Of a DNA stretch of 64,000 bases, positions 12,461-36,946 are shown piece by piece (positions within the stretch are counted from its first letter, which is position 1; the number at the start of each line of letters is the position of its first letter). This stretch comes from a virus. The translations under genes were made by a program, and so were the position numbers. The notes beneath the pieces were generated by a model. That model made no database searches. It worked only from the letters and a program-made list of their open reading frames with translations, and was not told the origin of the DNA. The DNA lies in the IMG/VR virus record IMGVR_UViG_3300025012_000066, positions 11,470 through 75,469 of that record; one strand, written 5' to 3'.

Positions 12461-12561
12461 ATATGGTTGATAAATAAGGTTGCAAACTTATTTATTGTAA
12501 TAAAAGAGCTATGCTGATACATGGCTCTTTTCCAATTTCTAAAAACTTTTGTCAGAAAGGA
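12461..12561 (+). ncRNA. Putative structured leader RNA (junction + RBS pseudoknot), copy A
   Basis: Hairpins 12469-12496 and 12503-12530; loop CTGATA pairs with TGTCAG (12550-55) abutting AAAGGA; homologous to copy at 36840. Confidence 0.6.
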
Positions 12562-12574
12562 TGATTAAATTATA

Positions 12575-13567
12575 ATGACGAGAAAAAAGACGAACGAAGA
12601 ATTTATTAATGAATTATATAATTTAAGAGGTAATCAATATGAAGTATTAGAAAAATATAATGGGAGTCGTATTAAATTATTAACTAGACATAATTGTAAT
12701 GAATGTAATAATTATGAATGGGAAGTTTCTCCTTATGATTTAATAAGTAAAGAAGTGCAATGTCCAGTTTGTCAGCATAAAAAACAAGGAGAGATGAGAG
12801 CAAGATCGCAGGAAACTTTTGAATCACAAGTTTTTAATGTTTTTGGCGATAAATATATTATTAAAGGAAAGTTTAAGAATATTGACAAACAAATTGAAGT
12901 TTATTGTACTATTTGTAATAAATCATGGAGTCCTATTCCTTATCATCTATTGAATGGACATGGATGTCCACATTGTAATGGAAATGCTCAAAAAACAACA
13001 GATGAATTCACTCAACAAATAAAAGATAAACATAAGAATAGATACACAGTAATTGGTAAATACATAAATTCAAAAACAAAAATAGAAATATTATGTAATA
13101 TCTGCAATGAACCTTGGTTAATATTCCCTAATAATTTAATAAGAGATTATGGTGGATGTCCAAATTGTAACCTTAATAGAGCAGAATTAGCAATTAAAGA
13201 ATGCTTAACTCAAAAGCAAATCAATTTTAAACCTCAATATAAATTTGATGATTGTCGTAACATTAAACCATTACCTTTTGATTCAGCAATATTAGATGAA
13301 TATAATAATGTAATAGGTTTAATCGAAGCAGATGGGCAACAGCATTTTGAACCTGTGAGATTTGGTGGTATATCGCAAGAAAAAGCAGAGAAGAATTTTA
13401 TAGAAACTAAAAAGAGGGATAAGATTAAAACGGAATACTGTGAGAAAAATCATATCCCCTTACTCAGAATCCCATATTGGGAGTTCAACAACATAGAACA
13501 AATAATAAATAATTTCATCCAAGAACTATCACCCCAACAAGATAATTCTATTTTAATTGCCAAATAA
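12575..13567 (+). CDS. Zinc-ribbon repeat + Vsr/DUF559-like putative homing endonuclease
   Basis: Repeated CxxC...GCPxC units; C-terminal PFD...LIEADGQQHF...LLRIPYWE. Confidence 0.75.
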   Translation: MTRKKTNEEFINELYNLRGNQYEVLEKYNGSRIKLLTRHNCNECNNYEWEVSPYDLISKEVQCPVCQHKKQGEMRARSQETFESQVFNVFGDKYIIKGKFKNIDKQIEVYCTICNKSWSPIPYHLLNGHGCPHCNGNAQKTTDEFTQQIKDKHKNRYTVIGKYINSKTKIEILCNICNEPWLIFPNNLIRDYGGCPNCNLNRAELAIKECLTQKQINFKPQYKFDDCRNIKPLPFDSAILDEYNNVIGLIEADGQQHFEPVRFGGISQEKAEKNFIETKKRDKIKTEYCEKNHIPLLRIPYWEFNNIEQIINNFIQELSPQQDNSILIAK

Positions 13568-13590
13568 TCAATCATAATATAATAAATCAA

Positions 13591-13650
13591 CTCAATAAAG
13601 TTCAATAAAGTTCAATAAAGTTCAATAAAGTTCAATAAAGTTCAATAAAG
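13591..13650 (+). repeat. 10-bp tandem repeat (TTCAATAAAG) x6
   Basis: Directly visible; last unit forms the start of the RBS AAAGGAGG. Confidence 0.95.
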
Positions 13651-13664
13651 GAGGTACAATCTTA

Positions 13665-14549
13665 ATGAAAACAATACTATTCGATAGAATTTCTAATAAA
13701 ATTACAGGAATCGACAGAGAAAAATTAAACTTCGAATACTCGGTTCTGCTCCCATTTCCTATCAATCTCAATAAAACAATATCTGAACCAACAAATGAAA
13801 AAATACAAAAAGTCAATGATAATGGTGAATATTTATACAAAGATAATATCCAAACCATTACAGATGAATTTGGCAATGAAATTGAGACATATGATGAGAC
13901 TATTGAATCAGAAAAAGTAATAGAATGGGACAAACAAACTGTAACTTACCGTATAGCATCAGATGAATATATTACAGAATTGCAAGATGTGATTCAAGAG
14001 GATGGTTCAATAGTTCAAGAAGAAGTTCAAATTATTGTATATCAAGAAATAACAAATGTAGTTAATGTTCCTAAGACTATTGTAAAATTAGAACCTGTAA
14101 TGATTGATGGAATAGTTGGTAGAATTTATACATTAGAAAATGGATATATGAATTTTGATTATCATGAGGTTTTGGAAGCAAAGAAACAAAGTATAAATAA
14201 TAATTCATTGACCAATCTCTGCTTTTTTGATGAGGACTTCATTAATAACGATTTAATCTTATCAAATTGCAGTATCGGTGATGGGATTTTAATCTTACAT
14301 TCTGGAGGAGTTGTTTCTAAAACAGTTCAACTCCCTAAATTAACAAACATCATAGAAATTTACCAAGAATCACAAAATAATGGATTGGTTTTTGAAGTAA
14401 ATGATGTTCAAGTACATTTTGAAGGAGACACAATAATATCGTCTAAAGGTAGGGTTAAATTACCTGAATACATAAATGAAATTACGATAAAAGTATCAAA
14501 TCCAATAAATAAGAATCTTGAATTGTATGCGTTAGGAGTGATGTGTTAA
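13665..14549 (+). CDS. Hypothetical protein in tail/lysis module
   Basis: 294 aa acidic ORF with strong RBS. Confidence 0.6.
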   Translation: MKTILFDRISNKITGIDREKLNFEYSVLLPFPINLNKTISEPTNEKIQKVNDNGEYLYKDNIQTITDEFGNEIETYDETIESEKVIEWDKQTVTYRIASDEYITELQDVIQEDGSIVQEEVQIIVYQEITNVVNVPKTIVKLEPVMIDGIVGRIYTLENGYMNFDYHEVLEAKKQSINNNSLTNLCFFDEDFINNDLILSNCSIGDGILILHSGGVVSKTVQLPKLTNIIEIYQESQNNGLVFEVNDVQVHFEGDTIISSKGRVKLPEYINEITIKVSNPINKNLELYALGVMC

Positions 14550-14884
14550 TGTCTGATTCGATTGATCTATGGCAAATTGTAGAGAAAGATTTAGAAAAAC
14601 AAACGGGTAGTCTAAGCAAGAATGTCAGTTACTTGGAATATTACAGTGATATATTAGGTTTAATTTTAAAAGAAATGGTCTCAATATTACCTCCAGAATC
14701 AATTACTCCTCAATTACAAGCAAAAGTTAATATATTAAGTACAATATTAGAACATTCTAGTATTGATTTATCAAATATTTCTTCTCCTTTAGAAATATGG
14801 AAAGTTGGAGGAATCATTGACCTTAAAAAAATTAATACAGAATTACGAGAGATGTACATTTCAGCGAAAATGAGTGGTGTTTAA
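14543..14884 (+). CDS. Hypothetical protein
   Basis: ORF coupled to upstream gene (TAATG overlap at 14547-14551). Confidence 0.55.
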   Translation: MLMSDSIDLWQIVEKDLEKQTGSLSKNVSYLEYYSDILGLILKEMVSILPPESITPQLQAKVNILSTILEHSSIDLSNISSPLEIWKVGGIIDLKKINTELREMYISAKMSGV

Positions 14885-14886
14885 TC

Positions 14887-15366
14887 ATGGATATTAATGA
14901 AATAAAACCAACAGATATATTAGCATATAAAGGTTCAAATCCAATATCAAAAATAGTTAAAAAATTAACAAATTCTAATTATTCACATTTGATAATTTAT
15001 ATATCAGATGGCATTGCAATAGAAGCAGATTGGAATGGAATTCAATATTGTAATATAGATAAATATAAAAATTATCTAGATGTCTATACATGCGATTCTT
15101 TAACAGATATTCAAAGAAAATTAATTTGTGATTATGCTATATCAAAAGTTGGAGATAAGTACGATTATGGTTTATTAATTTTTATGTTTTTGAAAAGAAT
15201 ATTAAAGTTCAGGTTTAGAATCAGGGATAGAAATAGTGATGTGTGTAGTGAATTGGTTAATGATTCATATGCTAAAGTTGATGGAATGAGATTAGTAAAG
15301 AAAAGATATCCTTCGCCACAAGAGGTAATTAGTTCAGATAAGTTAAGGTATATTAGAAGTTATTAA
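14887..15366 (+). CDS. Permuted papain-like NlpC/P60 amidase (YiiX/YebB-like)
   Basis: His before Cys order: NYSH...EA...KYDY...CSELV...P. Confidence 0.8.
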   Translation: MDINEIKPTDILAYKGSNPISKIVKKLTNSNYSHLIIYISDGIAIEADWNGIQYCNIDKYKNYLDVYTCDSLTDIQRKLICDYAISKVGDKYDYGLLIFMFLKRILKFRFRIRDRNSDVCSELVNDSYAKVDGMRLVKKRYPSPQEVISSDKLRYIRSY

Positions 15367-15447
15367 ATAATTAATATTTCAGAAAATAGTGGAGAATGGA
15401 TAATAAGATTTAATTCTTTTTATTAATTAAATGGAAGGTGAATAATT

Positions 15448-16323
15448 ATGATAAAAAATAAGGTAGTCGTGCTCGATATAGGTCATGGAGGTCGTGATCC
15501 AGGGGCATTGGGTATTAAAACACAAGAAAAAAATAATAATTTAACTTTAGGACTAAAAGTAGGAAAAATACTTCAACAACATGGAGTCACAGTAAATTAT
15601 ACTAGAACAACTGATAAAGATTTTTGTTCAAATTCATATGATATAAATGAAGATTTACAGAATCGTATTGCAATTGCGAAACAATATAATCCTGATGTCT
15701 TTATAAGTTTTCATAATAATGCGTTTAATAAATCAGCCAAAGGAATCGAATGTCACTGTTTTAAATTTGGAGGAACAGATGAGAAATTAAGTAGAAGTAT
15801 TCAAAGTAATATGGTTTTTGCTTTAAACATGATGATTGCCCGTAAAGTTAAGGCAAGTAATTTTTATGTTTTGCGTAAATTCGATGGAACAAATACAGAT
15901 GCTTGTTTAGTTGAATATGGATTTATTGATTCTGAGGAAGATGCTATTTTAGCAAATATGGATAAAGCGAGTGTTGCTATTAGTAAGGGGATTTTAGAGC
16001 ATCTTGATATTGCTTATAAAGAACAAATTACTTCTACTATTCAATCAGCAATAAATAATAATCAAGGAGTGAATGATATGTTAGATGTTTGTGTATTGCT
16101 TTACAGTAAAGAAGATTATTGGTCTGGGACAGATGTTTCTGAAAAAAATGGTAACTGTGCTTTATTTATTCGACCTGCTGATAAATCTGTACCAAAAGAT
16201 GCGATGAGTTCAAAGAAGTTGATTATAGTTGGAGGATCTAGTGTTGGACATCCTTGTGAAATTTTATTAAGTGGAAAAACAAAATACAATACGGCTGAAG
16301 CAGTTGGAAAATATTTAGGATAA
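15448..16323 (+). CDS. Endolysin, N-acetylmuramoyl-L-alanine amidase (Amidase_3) with C-terminal cell-wall-binding domain
   Basis: LDIGHGGRDPGA, E, FISFHNNA, LVEYGFID zinc-amidase motifs. Confidence 0.92.
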   Translation: MIKNKVVVLDIGHGGRDPGALGIKTQEKNNNLTLGLKVGKILQQHGVTVNYTRTTDKDFCSNSYDINEDLQNRIAIAKQYNPDVFISFHNNAFNKSAKGIECHCFKFGGTDEKLSRSIQSNMVFALNMMIARKVKASNFYVLRKFDGTNTDACLVEYGFIDSEEDAILANMDKASVAISKGILEHLDIAYKEQITSTIQSAINNNQGVNDMLDVCVLLYSKEDYWSGTDVSEKNGNCALFIRPADKSVPKDAMSSKKLIIVGGSSVGHPCEILLSGKTKYNTAEAVGKYLG

Positions 16324-16401
16324 TAAAACAAATGCCAATTAGAGGTATAAAATAAAAATTACACCTCTTTATTAACCTATTAAATTGGTCAATATTATTT
16401 T

Positions 16402-16517
16402 ATTCAGTTTTGTATGTATTTGACAGCCAGATATTGCCCATCTGGACTGTCATTTGGGAATTACAAAGCGTTAACTTTGTAAGACTTGTCTGAATTATAC
16501 ATCAAGAAAGGGGCAAT
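16402..16517 (+). promoter_or_regulatory. Structured leader with pseudoknot over the RBS of a lysis gene
   Basis: Hairpin 16421-16452 with loop ATTGCCC complementary to GGGCAAT (16511-17, part of RBS AAAGGGG); second hairpin 16461-16482; outer stem ATTCAG/CTGAAT. Confidence 0.5.
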
Positions 16518-16524
16518 TGTCAAC

Positions 16525-16923
16525 ATGAAAAATATAATTATGGAAGAGGTGTTGAATTTGAGCATTGAGCCAGAAATAAAGGAAGTTTTGGACGACCATA
16601 AAAAAATATTAGAGGAGCATACAGATAAGATTCAGGATCTTCAAATTGATAATGCTAGTACAAAGGAGCAATTAAATTCGATTAAAACACAAATGAATGA
16701 TGTAAAGGAAATTGTAACAGAATTTAAAACTAGTTATTTACAGACAACAAGTTCAATGATGGGAACATTAAGCCAAGTGGTAATTAATACTAGCAATAAT
16801 AATAAAGAAATTGCAACAACCACTAATAATAATAAAACTCAAATTGCACTCAAGGTTTTAGCTATTGTTGGTGGTTTAATTGTTGGGTGGTTTGCTTTAA
16901 AGGGAGTCACTATTAGTATTTAA
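16525..16923 (+). CDS. XhlA/holin-like membrane protein
   Basis: Coiled coil plus single C-terminal TM helix, between endolysin and holin; start uncertain (16525 ATG, 16540 ATG or 16558 TTG). Confidence 0.65.
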   Translation: MKNIIMEEVLNLSIEPEIKEVLDDHKKILEEHTDKIQDLQIDNASTKEQLNSIKTQMNDVKEIVTEFKTSYLQTTSSMMGTLSQVVINTSNNNKEIATTTNNNKTQIALKVLAIVGGLIVGWFALKGVTISI

Positions 16924-16949
16924 TATTAAAAATAAGGAGAATGATTTAA

Positions 16950-17300
16950 ATGGATATTACAACAGCATTACAAAGTTTTATGGTTTTAGGTACTTTAACT
17001 CTTGGTGTCACACAAGTTTATAAAGAAGTGATTTCTGACAAGAATACACAAAAAGTTAGTGTATTGATTGCTATGATTCTTGCTCTAGTTACTGGGACTA
17101 GTATTTTACAACCTTTAGGTTTTGTACCTGCAACTAATTTTGTTGATTTAGTGAGTCAATTTAAAGTTGGATTTGATGTTTTATACTGGATTGCAGATAT
17201 TGGTGTAACAGGATTCTTAGCATCAAAGGGGAGTAACTTTGCCATTGATTTGTTTAGTAAGAAAAATATAAATGAAAACAAAACAGAAAAAGTAGATTAG
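16950..17300 (+). CDS. Holin
   Basis: 116 aa, 2-3 TM helices, GFLASKGSNF motif, charged C-terminus. Confidence 0.75.
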   Translation: MDITTALQSFMVLGTLTLGVTQVYKEVISDKNTQKVSVLIAMILALVTGTSILQPLGFVPATNFVDLVSQFKVGFDVLYWIADIGVTGFLASKGSNFAIDLFSKKNINENKTEKVD

Positions 17301-17832
17301 TATCATCTACATAATAAAAACCAATAATTTCACAAATATAAACACTCTCTAAGCGTTTAGAAAAGTCTCTATCATACAAACTTACATAGAATCAATTTAA
17401 ACAGCTTAGAGAGTGTTTTCTGTGTGAATCAGATTATTGTGGGCCTGAAAGTGTTGATATAGTAAGGTTTAAAATGTGTCTGACTTACAAGAATTTACTA
17501 TTTTAAAGAGTTAGTTCACTAAGGGCATTGGATGTAATCCAAGCAAATGCTAATTTTAAAGGTATGGTCAAGAGAGGGATTTATGAGAATAAATTTCCTC
17601 TCTTTTATTATGTCTAAATTTAAATAATCTTCCAAAAATCACTTAGAGAATAGTGAAAACTATTCTAACACATTTTCTTTCATTCTTATTTTATTTAGTA
17701 AGAAACGGCGAAGAGAAGAGTTAGGATTTTCTTGACTTTTCTCTAAGTGATTTTTGTATATGGAAACAATTCTTCGCCGTTTTGTTTTTGTATTGAAATT
17801 ACTAATAAAAATAAGAAAGAAGGAAAAAGAAA

Positions 17833-19029
17833 ATGAGTAATGGTAATGTATTAGTAGAGTCCCAATCAGCAAGAGAAGAATTAGTAGTCAAGGTAAGTGA
17901 GGAAAGAGTTGGAGAAATCTTAAACAAGGTAAAAGGTTTAGTTTTGTTGGCAGATGATACACACGTGACGACAGAAATGGTTGCGAATTTTTATGAAGTT
18001 GGACTAGAAGCAATAAACAGTTTGATAAAAGATCATCGTAATGAATTAAATACTGATGGGTTAACGGTTTTAGAGGGTGAACAACTAAAGTCCTTTAAGA
18101 ACATCTGTCAAATTGAGTCAAGGGCAAGAGCTTTAACGATTATTCCTCGCAGAGCAATACTTCGTATAGGTATGATTTTAAGAGATAGTATTATCGCTCA
18201 ACAAGTTAGAACTTATTTACTTGATGTTGAAGGTAATACAAAAGTAGAAGATAAACTCATTGCATTAGGACAAGAAACTAACAATATAATATCAATATTA
18301 AATGAAAAGGTAGATAATTTACAATTGAGTAATAATACACTTAGACAAAATAATAGTGTAATTATTACAGACAATGAAGAATTAAAACATAATGTCTTAA
18401 TGTTAATAACTAAAGTTGATGAATTATTAGAGCAACCTCTTTTCAAGATCCACTCTAATTCTAGTAGATTATATGACATGTTAATTATAAATGACTTTAT
18501 GAATGCAATGGAATCATTAGGAATGAAAAAATCATATGATAAACATTACGCTTTGTTTAATAAAGAGTTTGAGAATTGGACAGGAATAAATTTTGGTGAT
18601 AAGAAAATAAATAAAAAACAATATTGGATTTCATATTATGGAATTGAATCAATAAAGCAATTTATCGTTGGTATTGCACAGAAAATAATTATTAAAAATG
18701 ATAATGGATATTGGGTTAGCAAAGCAGGTATTTATAGCAATAAAGTTGAATGGAAGAAAATATTAAATTCCTTTGGCAATAAATGTGCTTATTGCAGTAG
18801 CGAAGAAATAATTCTAGCAGAACATATTGTGCCACAAAGTAGTGAGGGATCAACCGATTGTATTCATAATTTAATTCCAAGTTGTTCTCTTTGTAATGAT
18901 AGAAAAGGTACAATGGATATGAAGTCATGGATAGAACTTAAAAGAAAAGAGGGAATGACTGATGAACAATATGAAAAAATTAGAGATCATTGGAGAAAAT
19001 ATCATATTGTTTTAGATTTAGATATTTAA
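17833..19029 (+). CDS. Antirepressor-like N-terminal domain fused to HNH nuclease
   Basis: VANFYEV...PRRAILRIGMILRDS..A..VRTYLL N-domain; CAYC...EHIVP...NLIPSCSLCNDRKG HNH. Confidence 0.7.
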   Translation: MSNGNVLVESQSAREELVVKVSEERVGEILNKVKGLVLLADDTHVTTEMVANFYEVGLEAINSLIKDHRNELNTDGLTVLEGEQLKSFKNICQIESRARALTIIPRRAILRIGMILRDSIIAQQVRTYLLDVEGNTKVEDKLIALGQETNNIISILNEKVDNLQLSNNTLRQNNSVIITDNEELKHNVLMLITKVDELLEQPLFKIHSNSSRLYDMLIINDFMNAMESLGMKKSYDKHYALFNKEFENWTGINFGDKKINKKQYWISYYGIESIKQFIVGIAQKIIIKNDNGYWVSKAGIYSNKVEWKKILNSFGNKCAYCSSEEIILAEHIVPQSSEGSTDCIHNLIPSCSLCNDRKGTMDMKSWIELKRKEGMTDEQYEKIRDHWRKYHIVLDLDI

Positions 19030-19073
19030 CAATACATAAATAATATTATCATATTGATTAGGAGGAATACAAC

Positions 19074-19292
19074 ATGAGCAAATCAAGAATTGAAGAAATA
19101 AAAACACTATTAAATAATGAAGGTTTTTATATGGATATGGGAATTGATCATTCAAATCACACATTTAATGTCAGTGTAATTGATAATAATGATGAACTCG
19201 TAGATGTTTATACTATAGGATTGACAGAACTATACAATAAATTATTCGATGATGATGCTGAATTTAAATGGATTGGTGATCTGGATAATTAA
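19074..19292 (+). CDS. Hypothetical protein
   Basis: Strong RBS AGGAGG; followed by hairpin terminator ~19305-19340. Confidence 0.6.
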   Translation: MSKSRIEEIKTLLNNEGFYMDMGIDHSNHTFNVSVIDNNDELVDVYTIGLTELYNKLFDDDAEFKWIGDLDN

Positions 19293-19401
19293 TAGTTTAT
19301 ACAAAGGGGTTGTCCAATTAATAATTTGGATGACTCCTATTTGAAGATTTCACTACCAATCCTATAGAGAAAAATAAATAAACAAAAAAAGGAATGATTT
19401 T

Positions 19402-19494
19402 ATGACAAATCAAACATTAGAAAGTAATAAATCAGAACTTAAAACCTTCTATGTTAAAAGTATGAAATTGGCTGGATTTTTGAAATATTATTAA
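19402..19494 (+). pseudogene. Truncated 5' copy of the DUF5659-like gene
   Basis: MTNQTLESNKSELKTFYVKSMKLAGFLKYY*; 16 aa identical to the N-terminus of 20420..20611. Confidence 0.75.
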
Positions 19495-19539
19495 AATATA
19501 ACAGATACAAAAAATAAATAAATTGTAAACACAAATTTT

Positions 19540-19654
19540 ACTAGCAAGAGGTAGTGGAAGTAATTACCCACTATTAGATGTAACTCGCACATCGTTCTTG
19601 CTAGTTTTTATAATTACGGGCGAGTATACTAAAATCAAAATAAGAAAGCGAGTT
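19540..19654 (+). ncRNA. Putative structured leader RNA (junction + RBS pseudoknot), copy C
   Basis: Outer stem ACTAGCAAGA/TCTTGCTAGT enclosing two hairpins; loop AACTCGC complementary to GCGAGTT (19648-54) at the RBS position. Confidence 0.55.
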
Positions 19655-19662
19655 GTTTATTA

Positions 19663-20403
19663 ATGGAAGGAAATATTGAAATTAAAGAGGAAGAAATTCT
19701 CGAACCCTATGGTTTTATTTATGTGACAACCAATATGGTTAATGGCAAAAAGTATATTGGTCAGAAAATGTTTAAAAAAGATTGGAAATATTATTTAGGT
19801 AGTGGAGCATATTTCTTAAGGGCTGTAAAAAAGTATGGTAAGAAAAATTTTAGTAGAGAAATTATTGCTATTGCATATTCAAAAGAAGAGTTAGATATAT
19901 TAGAAGTTCAATTTATAAATCACCACAATGCAGTTAATAGTACAGATTATTATAACCTTGTTGGAGGTGGATATGGAGGGAATGCTGGAATACCTGCGTC
20001 AGAAGAACAAAAGAAGAAAATGAGCGATTCTCATAAAGGGCATGAAACATCAGAGGAAACAAGAAAGAAAATTGGAGAAGCAAGAAAAGGTCATTTAGTA
20101 TCAGAAGCAACTAGGGATAAAATAAGCAATACTCTTAAAAATTACATAATAACAGATGAACATAGAACGAGTTTAAGTGAATCTGGCAAAGGACGCATCT
20201 TTTCAGAAGAAACAAAATTAAAAATAAGTGAGTCACATAAAGGAAAGAATATGGCTTTAAATTCTGAACAAATAGTAGAAATTAGAGAAAAATATGCAAC
20301 TGGAGAATATAAACAGTATGAATTAGCAGAAATATATTTTGTTACAAAACAAACAATCAATAATGTTGTAAATTATAAATATGCATATAAAAATGTATCG
20401 TAA
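19663..20403 (+). CDS. GIY-YIG homing endonuclease with NUMOD3 repeats and HTH
   Basis: GFIY...KYIG, YLGSG, YYNL..GG, repeated SEETRKKI/SESHKG. Confidence 0.9.
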   Translation: MEGNIEIKEEEILEPYGFIYVTTNMVNGKKYIGQKMFKKDWKYYLGSGAYFLRAVKKYGKKNFSREIIAIAYSKEELDILEVQFINHHNAVNSTDYYNLVGGGYGGNAGIPASEEQKKKMSDSHKGHETSEETRKKIGEARKGHLVSEATRDKISNTLKNYIITDEHRTSLSESGKGRIFSEETKLKISESHKGKNMALNSEQIVEIREKYATGEYKQYELAEIYFVTKQTINNVVNYKYAYKNVS

Positions 20404-20419
20404 ATTAAGGAGTGTTATT

Positions 20420-20611
20420 ATGGAATCAAATATAATTGAATTAAAGACATTTTATGTAAAAAGCATGAAATTAGCCGGATTTCTTATGATGAAAGGGTTT
20501 GTCCTTCATGGAGTAAAACCAGAGGAAAATTCAAACAGAAATATATTCTTATTCACAAATAGTCCTCAATTATTAAAAGCAATTGAGCAATATAAACAAA
20601 TCAAGAAGTAA
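20420..20611 (+). CDS. DUF5659-like small protein
   Basis: RBS AAGGAGTG; SMKLAGFLMMKGF...RNIFLF. Confidence 0.7.
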   Translation: MESNIIELKTFYVKSMKLAGFLMMKGFVLHGVKPEENSNRNIFLFTNSPQLLKAIEQYKQIKK

Positions 20612-20616
20612 AAATA

Positions 20617-20749
20617 TTTGACTACATAAATAGTGTAGTTAAAACTTAGTTACTTATCCATAATGACAGTAAAAATATTTGACTACCACTTTTATGTAGT
20701 TCAATACTTACAATTTACTGTATTTGACTACATAAAACAGGTAGTCAAA
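20617..20749. repeat. Three palindromic TTTGACTAC-N9-GTAGTCAAA sites
   Basis: Copies at 20617-43, 20678-704, 20723-49 (third has perfect arms). Confidence 0.85.
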
Positions 20750-20880
20750 TGAGGTGTAATAAGAGTAACTAAGTATTAATAAGAGAGAATAATATACTCA
20801 TGTCTCGCGAAACGCGATTCATAAATTATTTTCTTTTCTAATGATTATCATAAACAAATTAAAGAAAGAGGTTTTAACAA

Positions 20881-23060: not shown

Positions 23061-23089
23061 TTGACAATCCTATACCCATCCTCTATAAT
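23061..23089 (+). promoter_or_regulatory. Consensus sigma-A promoter
   Basis: TTGACA-17 bp-TATAAT; a similar promoter lies at ~22799. Confidence 0.85.
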
Positions 23090-23112
23090 TAGTATAATAG
23101 GAGAGTGATTAA

Positions 23113-23784: not shown

Positions 23785-23790
23785 GTAAGT

Positions 23791-26190: not shown

Positions 26191-26252
26191 CTTTGCACCA
26201 ATCTTATTTACGATTTTAACTCATAAAAATAAATTAAAAGAGGATGATATAA

Positions 26253-27612: not shown

Positions 27613-27708
27613 TATGATCTAGTGTTTAAATACGTTATTAACTCCTTACCCACCAAGGATTAATATAAATAGGGTTGTGACCTACACTAAATTAGAAAGG
27701 GGCAAATT

Positions 27709-28269: not shown

Positions 28270-28364
28270 AATTTATTAAACATACTACTTAGTGATATCT
28301 GCTGAGGTGGGCAGTAGATATAAAGATTAAAATATAAAATAAATTAATGGAGGTTTAAATTAAC

Positions 28365-28604
28365 ATGAAAGATTATGACGGATTAGGAAATGGTATTATT
28401 GCTAACGAAACTTTAAAAATGCTCATAAGAGATATTAGTAAACAATGGGGCAATATTTTCTCATCTGAAGACAAAGAAGAAATTGCTGAGTTTATAGTGG
28501 GGAAACATAATAAAGAATTGTTTATTACTTTATTAGATTCTCCATATTTTCAATGGTTGATAGGAATGATTTCTGAAGAAAATACCGGAAGACCAATATC
28601 TTAA
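28365..28604 (+). CDS. Hypothetical protein
   Basis: RBS GGAGG. Confidence 0.55.
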   Translation: MKDYDGLGNGIIANETLKMLIRDISKQWGNIFSSEDKEEIAEFIVGKHNKELFITLLDSPYFQWLIGMISEENTGRPIS

Positions 28605-28873
28605 TATAATGTAATATGTATATATTGACCCATAGCAGAGGGGTTCATACTCTGCTAATATATTGATAAGGATGTGGTGTTTCTATGAATTCTAAAACTG
28701 CCGTAAAAATTAGAAATAAGGGAATGTGGTTTCATAAGCATGGGAAACACAAAGGATTAAAAGAAATATCAATTATATTTAACAAGAGAAGAAGATTTAT
28801 GTATGTGTTTGAACCAATAGATATTAGTTGTGGGAATTGGTCAAGTTTTAGGTGGTAGAAAGGAAGTTTAATT

Positions 28874-29098
28874 ATGGAAGATACTCTAAATGATTCAAAA
28901 GACAATGTTTTTAATTATTATTTTCATTATTATGGTTTATTATGTAGTATTTATGATTATAAAACAGATTATCAAATGACAAGATTGTTTAATAAATTAG
29001 CCGAATGGGATGTTAGGATTGATAAATTACCAGAACAAATTAGAAATCAAATAAAAGAGTTGCAGCAAATTGACAATCAAGAAGATTGGGATTTTTAA
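28874..29098 (+). CDS. Hypothetical protein
   Basis: RBS AAAGGA. Confidence 0.5.
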   Translation: MEDTLNDSKDNVFNYYFHYYGLLCSIYDYKTDYQMTRLFNKLAEWDVRIDKLPEQIRNQIKELQQIDNQEDWDF

Positions 29099-29192
29099 AA
29101 TAAATATTCATTATGTAAATATAAAATATACAGGAGAGAACTTGCAAGTTTATGGGTAGCTATCCCTCCCTGATCAGGAGGAGAGAATTGAA

Positions 29193-30443
29193 TTGGGCAA
29201 AAATTTTACTATTGACTATGAAATTATTAGTAGTTTTAAATTAAAATTGGTGGGAACAGAACCTAAAAACGCAAAACAAAATTTTACAATGGAAGACAAA
29301 GAGGGATATATTTATTTTGGCAATTTAAGTGATATGAAACAAAAATTGAAACAGAATCATTCTCTGAGTAGATTTCATACATCAAATTCGCATACTATAG
29401 ATAATATAAAACTATGGTGCAAATTAAATAGTGTTGAATTGGAATTAGTAAGTACAATATATTTAAACAACAAACAAAAACTGGTGTTCAAAGACAAAGA
29501 AGGATATTATTATCTTTTATCTTTAGATTGCCTGCGAAGAAATTCGACGGCTTCTAGATTTCACAAATCAAACTCATATACAATACAAAATATAAAACTA
29601 TGGTGCAATTTAAATAATAAACCATTTAAATTAATTAGTAAAATATATGTTGGTGCTGATGATAAATTAGAATGGCAATGTTTAAAAGATGGTTGTGGCG
29701 AAATATTCAAAATGAAATGGAGTCATATTTATGATAACCACGGTTGTGGGTTCTGTCATGGCAAACAAATTGGTTTGTCAAATTGTCTTGAAACTTTAAG
29801 ATTTAAACTTTCTAAAGAATGGCATCCTATAAAGAATGGTGATTTAACTCCATTTGATGTAACAGTAAGTAATGGAGAGTATGCTTGGTGGAGTTGTAAA
29901 AAATGTAATCATGAATGGGAAGCAGTTATTGCTAGTAGAAGTAGTGGAATTGGTTGTCCTAGATGTGCTGAAATTAATGCAGAATCTCATTTACAGAAGA
30001 GAACAAGACTATACATAAATGAATGTGGATACGATGTATTACATGAAAAAGAATGCACGTTAAATCCTAAAAATATAATAAACCCTCCTGTAAATATTAT
30101 AAGCAATAAACAGAGAAGAAAGGGGATATTAAGATATGATAATGAAATAATAATTGATAATAGACATCTTTTTATCGAAGTTAACGGACAGCAACATGAT
30201 TTAGAGGATAATATATTTAATATAAAATCTTCTAAAAAGCACAATACCACACCAAAAGAAGAGTTAGAATATCTTAAAGCTAGGGATAAATTTAAAGAAC
30301 AATATGTACATATGCAAGGAGAAAATTATTATTACTTAGTATTGTGGTATTACGATTTTGATAAAGAGGATACATATAAAAAATTGATAGATGATAAGAT
30401 AAATGAGGTATTATCAAACCTTCCACTCCCAAAAGCAATATAG
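29193..30443 (+). CDS. Zinc-ribbon + Vsr-like putative homing endonuclease
   Basis: EWHPIKNG...WWSC..C.HEW...GCPRC; LRYD...IEVNGQQH. Confidence 0.75.
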   Translation: MGKNFTIDYEIISSFKLKLVGTEPKNAKQNFTMEDKEGYIYFGNLSDMKQKLKQNHSLSRFHTSNSHTIDNIKLWCKLNSVELELVSTIYLNNKQKLVFKDKEGYYYLLSLDCLRRNSTASRFHKSNSYTIQNIKLWCNLNNKPFKLISKIYVGADDKLEWQCLKDGCGEIFKMKWSHIYDNHGCGFCHGKQIGLSNCLETLRFKLSKEWHPIKNGDLTPFDVTVSNGEYAWWSCKKCNHEWEAVIASRSSGIGCPRCAEINAESHLQKRTRLYINECGYDVLHEKECTLNPKNIINPPVNIISNKQRRKGILRYDNEIIIDNRHLFIEVNGQQHDLEDNIFNIKSSKKHNTTPKEELEYLKARDKFKEQYVHMQGENYYYLVLWYYDFDKEDTYKKLIDDKINEVLSNLPLPKAI

Positions 30444-30460
30444 TTAAATACATAAATAAT

Positions 30461-30643
30461 TATTATATTGTACCAGTATCACCTATTCAGATGAGATTTC
30501 CAGTATATAATAGTAGTATATTTTCATCGTGGGAAGGTCATTTTCGTATACTTGGAGATCAAGAAGCAAGGGATATAGTTTATCATAGTGGATTAGGTTC
30601 AAAAACAAATTGTGGATTTGGCTGTTTGGATAGGGTTATATAA
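30461..30643 (+). pseudogene. cas6: C-terminal remnant of Cas6 (not in ORF track)
   Basis: WEGHFRILGDQEARDIVYHSGLGSKTNCGFGCL*: the Cas6 GhGxxxxxGhG glycine loop with its preceding W.G.F strand. Confidence 0.75.
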
Positions 30644-30698
30644 TACATAAATAAAATTATTAAATTATTCCTATGAAGGAGCAAATAAAATACATTCG

Positions 30699-31396
30699 CT
30701 AGATTATAAATCCAATGTCAATCACCTCTTTCCCAAACTTATCATATAGTTTTTCAAAAGAATCATCATTCTCTATACCAAACATCATTGGATTAACTTC
30801 AAAGACATTAACCAGTTCTATAAACTGATCTAAACTTATTTTCTTTTCTCCTAATTCAACTCTGCTTAAATAATATCCATTCAAACTAGTATTTTTAGCT
30901 ATTTTTATATAAGATAATTTCTTTAATTTTCTTATTCTTTTAATATTAAAACCCATATAATTTTTTGTATTAATCAGGGTATTAGTTTCTAATTGTAGAT
31001 AAAAATCTTTTGTACTTAGGTTTAAGTCTGGTTTTACGTAAGTAGTAGGGGTTTGTTTTTCATTGTTGTTTCGGCACTTAGAACAAAATAATCCATATGG
31101 TATGGGAGCGTTGCACACTAAGCACAATTTCATTTGATAACTAATATAATTTGATTCATATTCTTCTTTTCTGCAAGAATCACACTTTGTATATCTTTGA
31201 TTTATTATCTCAATACCACATTTAATACATCTTCCTGATTTTTTATATCTACTAGCAGATTTCTCCTTCTTTTTTGTAATGACATATTAATACAAGTCCT
31301 GCATTTTTGTGTTGTTTCATCTTGTTCTAAAGGTTTTCCACAATATGTGCATAAGCGAAGTGCTTTTCTTGTTTTTTGAGTTATATTTCTAGCCAT
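30699..31396 (-). pseudogene. Multi-zinc-finger + XRE HTH regulator, frameshifted (~31270)
   Basis: ORFs 31205-31405 and 30699-31133 join by a -1 shift in an A-run; colinear with intact paralog 35697..36596. Confidence 0.65.
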
Positions 31397-31511
31397 TAAA
31401 TACACTCCTTTTTAAGATTATATCATATTTATGGTTATTATGTCCGTTCAATTGAGTAATATGTTTATTCTAGTTTACCTTAACTATATTAATTTAAGGA
31501 GGTGATGAAAA

Positions 31512-31727
31512 ATGTTTATCAGTATGCTTGGCAATATACTTAGTAGTAGCAGTATACTAATGGAAGGAAGTGGTAAAATGAATTATATCGAAGAAACTTT
31601 ACTTGAAATCAAAAATGCTAAAACAGACGAAACAATTAAAAATATTATGTATGATATCTATATTACTACTCAATATGACTCAGCAATTAGGAAAGAATTT
31701 GATGATTATTTTGAAGATGTTAAGTAA
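31512..31727 (+). CDS. Hypothetical protein
   Basis: RBS AAGGAGGTG. Confidence 0.5.
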   Translation: MFISMLGNILSSSSILMEGSGKMNYIEETLLEIKNAKTDETIKNIMYDIYITTQYDSAIRKEFDDYFEDVK

Positions 31728-31781
31728 TTGATATTGATTAATCAGTAAAATAATAAATTTAAAAAAGGTGATAAAATAGAA

Positions 31782-31988
31782 ATGAAATACATACTAATAA
31801 ATAAACAAGTATTATTTACAGATTTAAAAGGCAATGAATTTGAGGGTTATGTCCTAAAAACAGAAAAACAAAATCTAGATATTTTTCAAATTCAAGAACT
31901 TGTAAAGATAATCTATAAAGATGCTAAAGGTAATTATGAGATTGTGAAAGTTCCAATGTCTTGTATTTTAGGGATGCATTATAATTAA
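31782..31988 (+). CDS. Hypothetical protein
   Basis: RBS AAAGGTG. Confidence 0.5.
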   Translation: MKYILINKQVLFTDLKGNEFEGYVLKTEKQNLDIFQIQELVKIIYKDAKGNYEIVKVPMSCILGMHYN

Positions 31989-32198
31989 AAATATATACTT
32001 AGAAAGGAGGTGATAAACAATGGAAGAACTCTACAGCGAATTAAAATCAGTTTGGTCTACATATTCAGACGAAGCAAGAGATAATTGGGCAATGTTGCTT
32101 GGTGGTAAGAGTGGTAAGAGTGAAGTTATGGTTTTGATGAGTAAGTAGGATTAAGGGGTAGTTTAAAGTAAAATAAAAATAAAGGATGGTAATGTAAA

Positions 32199-32441
32199 AT
32201 GAATGAATCAAGAGTTGAATTGGAGAAGCATGTATGGGATACTTCTGAAACCGAATATGACAGCACAAAGGAATTAGCAAATTTTCTAAGCAATATGGAT
32301 GCTAGAATTAAAGTGTTAGAAGAATTTGTAGAAAATTTGCAAAAAGAAAAACTAAAAGAAAAACTAAAAGAAAAACTAGATACGAAGAATATATCAAAAA
32401 TAGTAATTAATGAGATTAATAAAGGATTTGCAAAGACTTGA
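32199..32441 (+). CDS. Hypothetical protein with (KEKL)x3 repeat
   Basis: 12-bp tandem repeat; terminator hairpin ~32473-32495. Confidence 0.5.
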   Translation: MNESRVELEKHVWDTSETEYDSTKELANFLSNMDARIKVLEEFVENLQKEKLKEKLKEKLDTKNISKIVINEINKGFAKT

Positions 32442-32563
32442 TAAATAAATCCATTTGAAAGTTATAAAAAATGAGAGGGCGGCAACCCTCTCTTGCATGA
32501 AATTTAAGCTATGTGGCTAGGGCGTTTTACAAGAACGCTCATTGAGAGGAGGTGAAAAATAAA

Positions 32564-32876
32564 ATGAAAATATATAAAGTTACTCAAGAAACAAAAATTA
32601 TCAACTATCAACCAGTAGAAGAAAATCATGCTCATTTCTACACAAAATATAAAGGAAAATTATCGCCATGGAGTTAATTTTGAAAAAATGTTCTTATCAA
32701 AAGAAAACGCAGATATAGTTTATAATGAAATACTTGATGAAATAATGACTGGATCAGACGGAATAATAAAGAGTGGCAACACCATTTATTATGTAAAGAA
32801 TGTTTGGGAACTAAATAAACATCCGTATTCAATTATTAGTTGTGCCTGTGTTCAGGAAGTTGAAATTGCTGAGTAG
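32564..32876 (+). pseudogene. Hypothetical gene with a probable frameshift
   Basis: Strong RBS GAGGAGGTG precedes ATG 32564, which is out of frame with ORF 32628. Confidence 0.45.
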
Positions 32877-32932
32877 TAAATTAGTAAGTTTTAGGGTTGT
32901 GACCGACCACTATAATAAAGGAGGAAATTAAA

Positions 32933-33439
32933 ATGGAATTAAAAGATTTTGAGAGATATTTGGAATTAGTAAAAATTAATGAGGAATATATTAACATATG
33001 GAGAGAAACAAGAAGTGATGAAAACTATGAAAACTATGATAACGTGTCTAAAACAAGGGAAGAACTAAGTAATTTTAAAAATAATCTATTAAAGTTTGTT
33101 TTTGGAAACCAAAGTAGCATAGAAACAGTTATAGATAAGCTTAAATTTAGACTTAATCGTTTTAATGAATATGCTGGATCTGATGAAAATAGAGCATTTA
33201 ATGAAATAAAAATGGTTAAGGAAATATTGAATTTACTTGAGATGTATGATTGGAAACTTATGCACTCAGAGTATTATACAGGAGAAGTTAAACAAGTTGC
33301 TATTTGGGAACAAAATGGAGAAGGATTAATTAGGAGACATAAAGTTTGGAATGTAGTTGATGCTATAAATACTACAAAAGATTCAGGGAGAATTATTGGT
33401 AAAGCAATGGGAAGCATTTCTGAAAATATTAATAATTAA
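32933..33439 (+). CDS. Hypothetical protein
   Basis: RBS AAAGGAGG. Confidence 0.6.
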   Translation: MELKDFERYLELVKINEEYINIWRETRSDENYENYDNVSKTREELSNFKNNLLKFVFGNQSSIETVIDKLKFRLNRFNEYAGSDENRAFNEIKMVKEILNLLEMYDWKLMHSEYYTGEVKQVAIWEQNGEGLIRRHKVWNVVDAINTTKDSGRIIGKAMGSISENINN

Positions 33440-33475
33440 GGGTTGCGTCCAAACGCAAGAAAGAAGGAAATAACA

Positions 33476-34498
33476 ATGAAAGAAATTATGATTAAAACAA
33501 TCAAGGAAGATATCACATATATGTTGGCAGAACTAGGTAATATGCGTAAAGCTGAAGTCAATAAAGATACAAAGAATAAATTAATGGAAAACTCAGGTTT
33601 AAGTCAAGATTCAGTAGGATATCGTGTCTATTTTAAGGATTTTAGACCTTATAGAAAAATGGTTGATTCATTATCAAAACTATATGATAGTCTTAATCAA
33701 ATGTATAAATATAATATGTTAAAAGGAGATGAAGAGTTTGTAGAATATATTGTATCATCTCTATTTGCAGAATCTAAAGAATTACATAAGTTAATGGAAA
33801 CTTGTAAAGAAGATTATGATCAGTATAGATGTATGAGCGATGCTTATGTTAAACTGACTGATAAAATATGTAGGATTGAGAGGGATATGCCATATGATTT
33901 GATCAATCAAAAGGAATTATTAGATTTAGAGGCATCTTTAAACATAGTCCTTGCAGAATCAGAAGATATTGTTAATATTGCTGAAAGTTTAGGAATCTTA
34001 ACTGAAAAACATAATTATCAAAACGCATTATATTCTTTAAGTGTAGAATTAGATAATTGGATTGGTAAAGTGTCATATCCTATTAAAATTAGTAAAGATC
34101 AAAGAAATTTTATCAAAACATTATTTTCAAATGTTCAAGGGGCAAAGGGTATTTTGGTTAATAAAATTTCATCTTTTAAACAAGATGGTCTGTCATTAAA
34201 TGAGTATAAATATGTAAAACCAATGTATATTGATTGTGTTTGTAGTGAAGGCAAAGAAAATGATAAAGTGATAGCATACGTTGGCAATGAATTAATTGCT
34301 TTTAATTCTAGAAAACATATGCAACAACCAATGAGCATAATTGACTATGCTGAAATTATTCATGATGTAGCCATCCAAAAAGGATATGAAATATTTATTA
34401 ATACTCAAGGATTTGGAATGAGTTTGTATGATCATCTTATAGAATTTGGAGATTTGAAGGTTAGTAAGTTAATACAAATGGTTTTAGGTAAGAAATAA
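33476..34498 (+). CDS. Hypothetical protein carrying a copy of the tail-protein repeat domain
   Basis: TEKHNYQNAL..L.VELDNWIGK.SYPI matches repeats in 1416..5861. Confidence 0.65.
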   Translation: MKEIMIKTIKEDITYMLAELGNMRKAEVNKDTKNKLMENSGLSQDSVGYRVYFKDFRPYRKMVDSLSKLYDSLNQMYKYNMLKGDEEFVEYIVSSLFAESKELHKLMETCKEDYDQYRCMSDAYVKLTDKICRIERDMPYDLINQKELLDLEASLNIVLAESEDIVNIAESLGILTEKHNYQNALYSLSVELDNWIGKVSYPIKISKDQRNFIKTLFSNVQGAKGILVNKISSFKQDGLSLNEYKYVKPMYIDCVCSEGKENDKVIAYVGNELIAFNSRKHMQQPMSIIDYAEIIHDVAIQKGYEIFINTQGFGMSLYDHLIEFGDLKVSKLIQMVLGKK

Positions 34499-34578
34499 AA
34501 AATATAACAAATACTCCTAACTGCTTTAGTTGGCAGTTAGGAATATTAATATAATATTAATATAATATAGTATATAAA

Positions 34579-34827
34579 TTATTCAGGTGTTTGAAATTTA
34601 TCTAAATCAATATTGATTTCTAAAAAGAACATAAGATATCCACAATCTAAACATACATAATTAATAGGATACATAGGCATTGTAATCTCTTTTTCTGGTG
34701 TTTGAAATTTCATGGTGGCATTTATGTTCATAGTATCTACTTTATTACTTTTGCAAATAGGGCAAGATTTAGATTGATTTGATATTGTTTCTTTGGTAAT
34801 TTTACGAATGTTTTGATTTTCTTCCAT
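34579..34827 (-). CDS. Small zinc-ribbon protein
   Basis: CPIC...CLDCGY. Confidence 0.6.
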   Translation of the reverse strand: MEENQNIRKITKETISNQSKSCPICKSNKVDTMNINATMKFQTPEKEITMPMYPINYVCLDCGYLMFFLEINIDLDKFQTPE

Positions 34828-34887
34828 ATGATTGCCTCCCTATGTTTGATAATATTGATTAGCATGTCCATTTTGTTTGATTAATAA

Positions 34888-35707
34888 TTATCTCAATCTA
34901 ATCTTCTTAACATTAATTAAACAATCTGGATCAACAATAACCTCACTCTCACCCCTCTTGTCAATATAAGCAAGAACATCTTCAATTTTTATCATTGCTT
35001 CATATAATTTCCCATTATCAGGATCAAATCTTGTAGCAAAGAATTTAGCTGCATTAATATCAATTGTCCAAGAAAATGCTTTCTTATAAGGCGTAGATTC
35101 AGTGTTTTGTCCTCGATATATTTTAACAAGACCACTACTATCTACTTTTAAAATTTTTCTAAAATCTTCTTTTGGTTTGTACTTAAATATATTGAGAAAG
35201 AAGTTTTTATTAAGTTTTGAAAAACCATATTCAGAACGTCTATAAATGTCCTCAAAGCACTTATATTTTTGTTCATCAGGTATATTTTCAAATGATTCAA
35301 TATAGAAATCTAGAGTAATCTTCTTCTCTATAAGGAAAAATAATTTATCATATTGTTTTTTAGAGATGTATTTGTTCATACTCTCTTCAACTTTTTCGAT
35401 TCTTAATTTAGTTTGATAAAGGGTTAAAACTTTGATATCGAATGCATCTATATCTACCATGACAGGGCCAGAGAGGTATGCGTAAGGCGTTATGAAAGTT
35501 ATCATTGAAGTAGAACCTATCTATTGGCTTATCAAGGTGTTTAATGGCATTTAGGATGATTTCATATAGAGGTATTTCGTATTCAGTTTCTTCTATTATT
35601 TTGAGTCTAAATTGGTTGTTTTGGAATCGAGAAATAGGAATTAGTAAATCTTGGTTGACGACACGGTGAGATAGGTTGAATAATTTGTTTATGTCATTAG
35701 TTTTCAT
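34888..35707 (-). CDS. Putative ADP-ribosyltransferase-fold protein, probably frameshifted near 35498
   Basis: R-S-ExE motif: IYRG...FSWT...GESEVIV; overlapping ORFs 35408-35707 and 34888-35505 fuse on deleting one base in a homopolymer. Confidence 0.5.
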
Positions 35708-36596
35708 TTCTGTATTCTCCTTTAATTATAAAATCAATGTTAACAATTTCAGTATTAAATTTAGAATATAGTTTCTTACATAATTTATCTGATTCGATTC
35801 CAAACAGAGATGAATCAATGCCTAACACCTTAATAATTTCTTTAAACTGTGGTAGATTGATTTTTCTTTTACCTTTCTCAATATTATATAATTCATCTAA
35901 TTTTAGATTGGAATTTTTAATAAAGTTAGATGTAGATATTTTCTTTAACTTTCTTACTCTTTTAATATTGAATCCTATATAATTGCCATTTTTTATAGCT
36001 TGATCAATTTCTAATTGAATATAGAAGTTTTTTGTGCTGATTTGTTTTTCTTTTTCGGTTAGAGTTTTTCCTTGATAACTTTTACGTTCTGTAATTGGTT
36101 TTGATTGTTGATTATTTTGATTAAGTTTCTTGTAGAAACTTTTATCATATGAGTTTTTAATATTTCTTTTAATACTTTCTTTTTTACATTCAGGACAATA
36201 TTTGCCGAATTGATCTACAAAGACTCCACAACCACCTAGACATAGTTTTGGTGCTTTTGATTTTCGGTCTATTTTATCATTATATGGTTTTTGATGTATA
36301 CGAGCTTTTTCATAGCATTTTCTACATTTAAAATATTCCGTTGAATCTAATCTTGTGCCACAAGTAAAACAGATTCTTAATTGTTTACAGTTTTCTTTTT
36401 TTGCTTGATAATCTTGTTTGATAATTAATCTGCATTTTTCACAGTGTATTTTTGTTTCTTTAGGTGATAGAGGTTCACAACATTTAAAACAGAGACGAAG
36501 TTTCTTTCTGATTGAGTGTGTTGGGTTTATACTTGTATTTTTTGGTGTTTGATTAATTGTATCTTGTGTCATTTGTGACAACCTCCATTTCGACAA
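35697..36596 (-). CDS. Multi-zinc-finger + XRE HTH regulator
   Basis: Several CxxC pairs; GFNIKRVRKLKKIS...IEKGKRKINL; TTGAAC-17-TATAAT upstream. Confidence 0.7.
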   Translation of the reverse strand: MSKWRLSQMTQDTINQTPKNTSINPTHSIRKKLRLCFKCCEPLSPKETKIHCEKCRLIIKQDYQAKKENCKQLRICFTCGTRLDSTEYFKCRKCYEKARIHQKPYNDKIDRKSKAPKLCLGGCGVFVDQFGKYCPECKKESIKRNIKNSYDKSFYKKLNQNNQQSKPITERKSYQGKTLTEKEKQISTKNFYIQLEIDQAIKNGNYIGFNIKRVRKLKKISTSNFIKNSNLKLDELYNIEKGKRKINLPQFKEIIKVLGIDSSLFGIESDKLCKKLYSKFNTEIVNIDFIIKGEYRNEN

Positions 36597-36839
36597 TGAT
36601 GATTATATTATAGCATATTTAGGGGTTTTGTTCAAATTTGAGTTTTATTATTATCCAATAAAAGTATGTTTTTATTTTGTTTGAAATAGTGGGTTTGAAA
36701 GTGGTTTGTAGTAAGGGTTGTAGAGGTGGGAATTGTTGGTAATTGGATGATTTGGAGTTTATTAGTTATAATTTAATATTTTTTATTTTTAAAGAGCTGT
36801 TGAGGCTCTTTTTTGTTTTGTTTAGTGAAATTGAATTTA

Positions 36840-36946
36840 ATATGGTTTTCAATAAGTTAGGCCAAATTTATTGAAGTAAAACTAGGACAATCATGCCAAT
36901 ACATAGTTGTCCTTATTCCATTTGTGTCTCTAAATATTGGAAGGAG
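36840..36946 (+). ncRNA. Putative structured leader RNA (junction + RBS pseudoknot), copy B
   Basis: Hairpins 36848-75 and 36884-913; loop CCAATA pairs with TATTGG (36935-40) abutting AAGGAG. Confidence 0.6.

Follow-up and report, generated by a model that had tools for sequence, protein, structure and literature searches.

Homing endonucleases need to be made in small, well-timed amounts, and to our knowledge the RNA controls described for them so far are only simple, lineage-specific hairpins in T4-like phages. In T-even phages, homing-endonuclease genes are held down by RNA structures that sequester the ribosome-binding site (RBS), whose presumed effect is that read-through transcripts are poorly translated (PMC2988022). 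Here, we report a more elaborate leader RNA upstream of two free-standing homing-endonuclease genes, HEG1 and HEG2, in a 64-kb section (hereafter, the window) of the 75.5-kb IMG/VR virus record IMGVR_UViG_3300025012_000066 (estimated completeness, 45%). The leaders at positions 12458-12577 (copy 1, before HEG1) and 36837-36960 (copy 2, before HEG2) and their homologues are referred to as type A; the leader of a GIY-YIG nuclease gene at 19538-19665 is type B, and a third, divergent group is type C. Type A is a structured cis-acting RNA family that is not in Rfam, and both its fold and a pairing between a hairpin loop and a partner strand next to the RBS are under selection.

How far does this leader extend beyond the two copies? 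The similarity between copies 1 and 2 went undetected by blastn, a blastn search of GenBank phages with both leaders gave chance matches only, and megablast with the HEG1 region gave no match. We built a covariance model, R1, whose seed consisted of copy 1 and two foreign homologues with copy 2 excluded, and whose helices were a short closing helix (P1), hairpin 1 and hairpin 2, the pseudoknot being left out. Because this model recovered copy 2 at 74.9 bits (E 3e-11) without having it in the seed, the resemblance between the two copies is far beyond chance. R1 and a broader type A covariance model, R2, were then applied to 80 loci chosen purely because they encode relatives of HEG2, as judged by protein similarity, and found about 20 further copies in uncultured phage contigs, in each of which the leader ends at the nuclease start. 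These recoveries bear out the proposal, made earlier in a sequence-only reading of the window, of a conserved cis-acting RNA family with covariation. One type A copy lies on a contig of a Clostridium sp. metagenome-assembled genome, which hints at hosts among the Clostridia, and the phages that carry the leader are AT-rich and probably infect Clostridia. This genome contains two type A copies only. A first, motif-based pattern scan of viral contigs had given eight matches, of which three were true homologues and the other five were rejected as chance occurrences in coding DNA. Window positions 6026-6144 (E 0.13) were likewise dismissed, being a plain terminator and RBS before a structural gene, as were candidates in L015, L074 and L061 on the same grounds. 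A degenerate type A leader at L002:3795-3917 (R2, 43.8 bits) has no loop partner and no nuclease gene. Only a 16-codon open reading frame (ORF) and a hairpin resembling a terminator come after it, and it appears to be what remained when the nuclease gene was lost.

The type A leader is about 120 nt long. An ATGG in its 5′ box and a CCAT located 3′ of hairpin 2 can pair as P1, and the element is therefore a three-way junction composed of P1, hairpin 1, the junction GUAA and hairpin 2. P1 is nearly invariant within type A, with the compensatory variants ATTGG/CCAAT and GTGG/CCAC, and one of its pairs occurs as AU 16 times, UA 3 times and GC once. In structure-guided alignments, 91-95% of the cells in the nested helices are paired and 20-24 pairs have changed on both sides; no shuffle among 500 matched this stem covariation, and in controls with the partner slid along the sequence only 31-54% were paired. 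The type A stems contain 47 G.U against 7 A.C juxtapositions, and therefore selection acts on the sense-strand RNA and not on a DNA palindrome. The junction nucleotides UU and GUAA are invariant, and the stems of hairpin 2 open with A-runs and close with U-runs, followed by UCCAUUU. The minimum-energy folds of both copies in the window include both hairpins (z-scores of -3.9 for copy 1 and -1.7 for copy 2), in agreement with the earlier statement that the stems differ in sequence yet pair in both leaders, and all of the elements that it had listed as shared occur in that order at the positions it gave. The closure of hairpin 2 by ATG/CAT and the following TTCCA, which it had also counted among the common features, are confined to one subgroup, and other members have GTG/CAC and other variants.

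The loop of hairpin 2 is complementary to a stretch of 5-8 nt directly 5′ of the Shine-Dalgarno (SD) sequence in every type A member apart from the degenerate leader of L002, with at least 12 distinct loop/partner sequences. Type A thus has a hairpin loop paired with a distal strand, with covariation, as in a pseudoknot or a kissing loop. We scored this pairing as the longest Watson-Crick complement between the 12 nt at the center of hairpin 2 and the region reaching from hairpin 2 to the start codon. The scores of the members with their own partners sum to 141, compared with 102.8 +/- 4.6 once members are given one another's downstream segments at random, and none of 20,000 such permutations reached 141; the test is conservative, because the hairpin-2 finder, which was anchored on GUAA, misses hairpin 2 of L010 and L014. 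The covariation that had been noticed between the two copies in the window thus holds throughout the family. The loop-partner duplexes have energies of -4 to -9 kcal/mol. The partner strand, of which there is only one in type A, is always followed immediately by AAGGAG, AAAGGA, GGGGA or AGGAG, and about 17 nt separate its end from the AUG. In a model-made alignment with several rows out of register, the loop-partner helix is 74% paired, and three of its six pairs have changed on both sides. A pyrimidine tract located 5′ of the partner strand can also pair with the SD in all members, over 3-8 bp (at least 4 bp in 18 of 19 type A members). The contact may therefore be a kissing loop instead of a classical pseudoknot: a weak hairpin that sequesters the SD would present the partner strand in its loop, as far as the modeled pairings indicate.

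Searched against Rfam 15 at the gathering threshold, the 64-kb window gave no match, and 20 homologous loci gave a single match, a tRNA. When the three nuclease regions were searched at E values up to 10, only noise was returned, with no match to introns or small ribozymes, and nothing suggests self-cleavage. We found no description of this leader family in the searchable literature, and the suggestion that it might be undescribed has so far held up. On the contig L093, a tRNA gene (L093:114-188; Rfam, 69.8 bits) is located about 100 nt upstream of the type A leader.

The GIY-YIG leader had been considered a further instance of the same topology. Its three-way junction and its loop AACTCGC, with the complement GCGAGTT at the RBS, are indeed present, but neither R1 nor R2 matches it; type B is a sister family with the same architecture and not a third type A copy. 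Upstream of 80 GIY-YIG loci R2 gave no match, and such a leader is also missing from L130, the closest GIY-YIG homologue. A structural model made from the type B leader as its one sequence (R3) matches L089 and L085, in each case directly upstream of a HEG2-type gene, and also the end of contig L007, at a syntenic distance from the type A leader of that contig. In the four type B sequences, which represent just two clades, 98.9% of the positions in the helices are paired and 8 pairs have changed on both sides, and the loop AACTCGC and both of its downstream complements are invariant. The divergent type C leaders (L010:66-178, L014:1383-1503, L216:586-703 and L024:1028-1140) precede HEG1-type genes, and that of L216 comes from a Lysinibacillus zambalensis genome. 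They also form a three-way junction. Their hairpin-1 loop contains GTCATGAGC or TAATTA, and the loop of hairpin 2 has two matching sites farther downstream, the latter of which is the SD; the two sites were computed for L010, L014 and L024 and found by eye for L216.

What might such a leader do? We propose that the RNA would fold through P1, hairpin 1, GUAA and hairpin 2 into the three-way junction, whereupon the apical loop of hairpin 2 would pair over 5-8 bp with the stretch abutting the SD. The pyrimidine flank of this stretch could pair with the SD, so that the contact would possibly be made as a kissing loop onto the weak SD-sequestering hairpin. A compact fold would thus lie inside the landing zone of the 30S subunit and would most likely lower the initiation of nuclease translation. 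Type B would follow the same plan, with a loop complementary to the SD itself and to a second, upstream site. The sequence-only reading had likewise inferred control of nuclease translation. We infer, with somewhat better than even confidence, that the leader, once folded, covers the ribosome landing zone, so that little nuclease would be translated from any transcript with this leader, both the effect and its sign being drawn from the modeled structure. Predicted without a tertiary term, the accessibility of the SD is 0.34 in the leaders and 0.52 in other phage genes (n = 27; one-sided P 0.02), and we also count in favor of this reading that in types B and C, unlike in type A, the loop matches the SD itself. 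Several observations weigh on the other side. In type A the SD lies outside the covarying helix and is only adjacent to it, and a helix 5′ of the SD may be neutral or even helpful. The third hairpin that would sequester the SD has weak support (P 0.027 against shuffled flanks), because pyrimidine-rich flanks easily pair with purine-rich SDs, and the accessibility comparison is rough, with a background of 27 genes from one phage. Because P1 of type A is only 4 bp long, nearly invariant and overlapping a -10-like TAATAT, some transcripts might lack its 5′ strand. Finally, about 70% of the HEG2-type genes have no leader detectable with R1 or R2, so that the element is not obligatory.

A further property concerns the tip of hairpin 1, which contains a self-complementary core of 4 to 6 bases in all 18 type A members examined, usually with G...A flanks, in five versions (TTGCAA, TTCGAA, TAGCTA, ATCGAT and GGCC); the tips of the sister families are TAATTA or TCATGA. 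The version is independent of the nuclease clade, in that copy 2 (W_L2) has GGCC and L036 has TTCGAA although their proteins are 88% identical. A plain hairpin has no need of a self-complementary tip, and this one has the sequence signature of a kissing-loop dimerization site. It is conceivable, if doubtful, that the tips let two leaders kiss, possibly leading to a long intermolecular duplex that would be cut by RNase III, and that the loop of the sister families toggles between an upstream decoy and the SD, the whole acting as a dimerizing, self-limiting switch. If so, nuclease output would depend on how much of its own mRNA is present, a rare case of control of a bacterial-virus gene by mRNA-mRNA pairing.

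We weighed the proposed lowering of nuclease translation against other explanations. The leader could be a two-state switch or an activator, in which the loop, while bound to an upstream site, would occupy anti-SD elements and leave the SD open, and in which a trans-acting factor (temperature, a phage or host protein, a ligand or the transcript concentration) would pick the state. In favor of this are the two alternative partner sites in types B and C (an upstream site and the site at the SD), the type A helix that abuts the SD without covering it, the invariant UU and GUAA of the junction, which recall ligand- or protein-binding folds, and the retention of the strong canonical SD AAGGAG. However, type A has a single partner site, no mutually exclusive alternative helix with covariation was found, and there is no ligand-related gene context and no obvious metabolite for nuclease genes to sense; we regard a switch of this kind as unlikely. 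Less probable still is an autoregulatory operator, whereby the nuclease or another phage protein would bind the leader RNA, or the palindromic hairpin-1 DNA, and repress its own synthesis. All of the downstream proteins have nucleic-acid-binding zinc fingers, the palindromic tip is like the binding site of a dimer, and I-TevI offers a precedent for autorepression at the DNA level (PMC2988022). Nevertheless, the same leader type stands before nucleases without detectable similarity, the palindrome varies freely and not by protein clade, as the pair of W_L2 and L036 illustrates, and the stems covary with G.U pairs, so that it is the RNA shape and not the DNA sequence that is conserved.

A very improbable alternative is that hairpin 2 and its U-rich tail act as a terminator or attenuator, so that fewer transcripts run on into the nuclease gene, the loop complementarity being secondary. 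The A-run/U-run stems followed by UCCAUUU have the appearance of one, and T4-type phages also limit nuclease genes by termination (PMC2988022), but a terminator scan skips hairpin 2 in both copies while flagging terminators at 36791 and 38483, the U-tract is broken by the CC of P1, and termination cannot account for the selection seen on the partner strand, whose transcription comes after that of hairpin 2. We give the least credence of all to the split core of a group I intron or another ribozyme around the ORF, or to a DNA element such as a homing or recombination site. Relatives of HEG1 in Staphylococcus phages are indeed annotated as group I intron-associated VSR homing endonucleases, and the combination of a three-way junction and a long-range loop contact is reminiscent of ribozymes. 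Against this, Rfam returned no match at the gathering score or at E values up to 10, not even a partial one to Intron_gpI, and in both the window and L007 the gene upstream has its natural stop, which is conserved. The 97 nt located 3′ of HEG1 contain only a tandem repeat and the RBS of the next gene, HEG2 is flanked by genes on the opposite strand, and the strand-specific excess of G.U pairs argues against a DNA element.

Two side features were noted at the 3′ end of the leaders. An AUG just 3′ of the SD opens a tiny out-of-frame ORF (12560-12577 in copy 1 and 36947-36970 in copy 2) whose end coincides with the nuclease start or lies just beyond it; in copy 1, the stop of this ORF and the nuclease start overlap in TAATG. 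This ORF could have an upstream-ORF or coupling effect. In addition, positions 12549-12576 contain a near-consensus sigma-70-like site (TTGTCA, 16 nt, TATAAT; 11 of 12 bases) that overlaps both the partner strand and the start codon of HEG1 and may be due to chance. A scan for sigma-70 promoters found no conserved site within the leader, although that consensus may not be the one used by this phage.

Does the leader travel with its nuclease? The genes downstream of the leaders encode treble-clef zinc fingers (DUF4379), CapR-type domains and a Vsr-like nuclease. HEG1 and HEG2 share 24% identity (E 0.012), whereas their leaders are 73% identical, and the leader of copy 2 is 78% identical to that of L007, which precedes the gene of an unrelated protein, compared with 68% to that of L036, in spite of the close similarity of the proteins in the latter case. 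Leader similarity is uncoupled from nuclease similarity, and the leader therefore behaves as an exchangeable module. The sequence-only reading had suggested a mobile cassette of leader and nuclease; the leader does abut the nuclease gene, but the uncoupling of the two points to shuffling of modules rather than strict co-travel, as far as sequence comparison can tell, and no empty site was found. The gene 38533-40059 (- strand), which encodes a DndB-like protein (PF14072), adjoins the HEG2-type nuclease gene here and in all three relatives that have it (L210, L211 and L212), so that the homing site of this nuclease may be in or near the DndB-like gene; in a search for empty sites through this neighbor, every locus returned also had the nuclease. 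Copy 1 and L007 are syntenic, and their leaders begin 22-24 nt past the conserved stop of homologous long genes. Many HEG2-type copies, copy 2 among them, have a terminator-like hairpin about 30 nt upstream.

The coordinates of the leaders and genes are collected in the table below. The tandem repeat 3′ of HEG1 is located at 13592-13650, between the HEG1 stop and the next RBS (gene start, 13665), and consists of about six head-to-tail copies of the 10-nt unit CAATAAAGTT. A neighboring 294-amino-acid protein has no relative in GenBank phages. The window also contains an HNH nuclease gene (17833-19029), whose upstream region (17690-17835) has long hairpins but no three-way-junction leader and no match between a loop and the RBS.

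Table. Positions, in the 64-kb window, of the type A and type B leader RNAs, their parts and the nuclease genes that follow them.
Feature	Position	Strand	Basis or remark
Type A leader RNA, copy 1, up to nuclease start codon	12458-12577	+	R1 115 bits, R2 95 bits; fold
ATATGGTT box, copy 1	12461-12468	+	sequence
P1 5′ strand ATGG, copy 1	12463-12466	+	pair counts in alignment; compensatory variants elsewhere
P1 3′ partner CCAAT, copy 1	12532-12536	+	just 3 good pairs in copy 1
Hairpin 1 (9 bp), copy 1	12470-12495	+	minimum-energy fold, alignment
Hairpin-1 tip TTGCAA, copy 1	12480-12485	+	sequence; self-complementary, G...A flanks
Junction GUAA (GTAA), copy 1	12497-12500	+	links the two hairpins; found in 22 of 22 type A members
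Hairpin 2 (12 bp), copy 1	12502-12531	+	fold; apical loop CTGATA at 12514-12519
CTTT, 5′ flank of partner strand, copy 1	12546-12549	+	sequence
Partner strand TGTCAG of hairpin-2 loop, copy 1	12550-12555	+	5 Watson-Crick pairs and 1 G.U; duplex -5.1 kcal/mol
SD-like AAAGGA, copy 1	12556-12561	+	directly 3′ of partner strand; position common to the family
HEG1, 330-amino-acid homing endonuclease	12575-13567	+	treble-clef zinc finger, CapR domain, Vsr-like nuclease; Pfam and PHROGs
Type B leader RNA	19538-19665	+	R3 homologues L089, L085 and L007:1-82; fold
P1, type B	19540-19549/19596-19605	+	fold, alignment
Hairpin A, type B	19550-19575	+	tip GTAATTAC
Hairpin B, type B	19577-19593	+	loop AACTCGC at 19582-19588
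Loop complement GCGAGT, site 1, type B	19620-19625	+	upstream site; kept in all complete members
Loop complement GCGAGTT, site 2, type B	19648-19654	+	at SD position
GIY-YIG homing endonuclease, SegE-like, NUMOD3, 246 amino acids	19663-20403	+	Pfam and PHROGs
Intrinsic-terminator-like hairpin	36791-36811	+	about 30 nt upstream of copy 2; terminator scan
Type A leader RNA, copy 2	36837-36960	+	R1 74.9 bits though outside seed; R2 97 bits
ATATGGTT box, copy 2	36840-36847	+	sequence
P1 5′ strand ATGG, copy 2	36842-36845	+	partner CCAT at 36918-36921
Hairpin 1, copy 2	36848-36875	+	fold; self-complementary tip GGCC at 36860-36863
Junction GTAA, copy 2	36876-36879	+	sequence
Hairpin 2, copy 2	36884-36913	+	fold; apical loop CCAATA at 36896-36901
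Anti-SD-like TCTCT, copy 2	36927-36931	+	possible weak third hairpin, partner strand in its loop
Partner strand TATTGG, copy 2	36935-36940	+	complement of loop CCAATA
SD AAGGAG, copy 2	36941-36946	+	directly 3′ of partner strand
HEG2, 506-amino-acid homing endonuclease	36958-38478	+	family other than that of HEG1; profile and pairwise comparison

That one fold is common to unrelated nucleases, directly for the Vsr/zinc-finger proteins and through a sister family for the GIY-YIG protein, suggests a portable module that has been picked up and exchanged. Such a leader would add a new family to the RNA catalogues, and would offer a compact, naturally occurring part with which translation could be tuned.

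Parts of this architecture have counterparts elsewhere. Purine-type riboswitch aptamers are three-way junctions with loop-loop contacts, and the present leaders likewise have a three-way junction, invariant junction nucleotides and a covarying loop contact upstream of the RBS. They differ in that the contact is made to the expression platform and not between the arms of the aptamer, and there is neither an Rfam riboswitch match nor a metabolic gene context. In T4 gene 32, a pseudoknot 5′ of the RBS is the nucleation site for the gene's own protein; the leaders share with it a tertiary RNA contact immediately 5′ of the RBS in a phage mRNA, whereas here no protein partner is indicated and both the architecture and the class of gene differ. 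Hairpins of the HIV-1 dimerization initiation site (DIS) type, which form kissing-loop homodimers, have a loop with a six-base self-complementary core and purine flanks. The hairpin-1 loop has such a core with purine flanks as well, and its dimerization is putative; in contrast to the HIV-1 case, it belongs to the mRNA leader of a bacterial virus, and the loop itself could be a palindrome at the DNA level. The closest likeness is to the hairpins of the T-even phages and their relatives (I-TevI, I-TevII, I-TevIII, segB and Aeh1 mobE), which are also cis-acting RNA structures at the RBS of a nuclease gene. Like them, all members described here except the degenerate leader of L002 are located directly upstream of a homing-endonuclease ORF. 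The T-even structures are single, lineage-specific hairpins that hold the SD within a stable stem and are bypassed by an embedded late promoter; in the present leaders no embedded promoter was identified, the SD of type A can enter a weak stem of 3-8 bp (P 0.027), and the type B loop pairs with the bases at the SD position. Whereas each T-even hairpin belongs to its own lineage, the leader described here is a covarying three-way junction with a long-range contact next to the SD (type A) or at it (type B), and it is common to unrelated nuclease families and to many phages.

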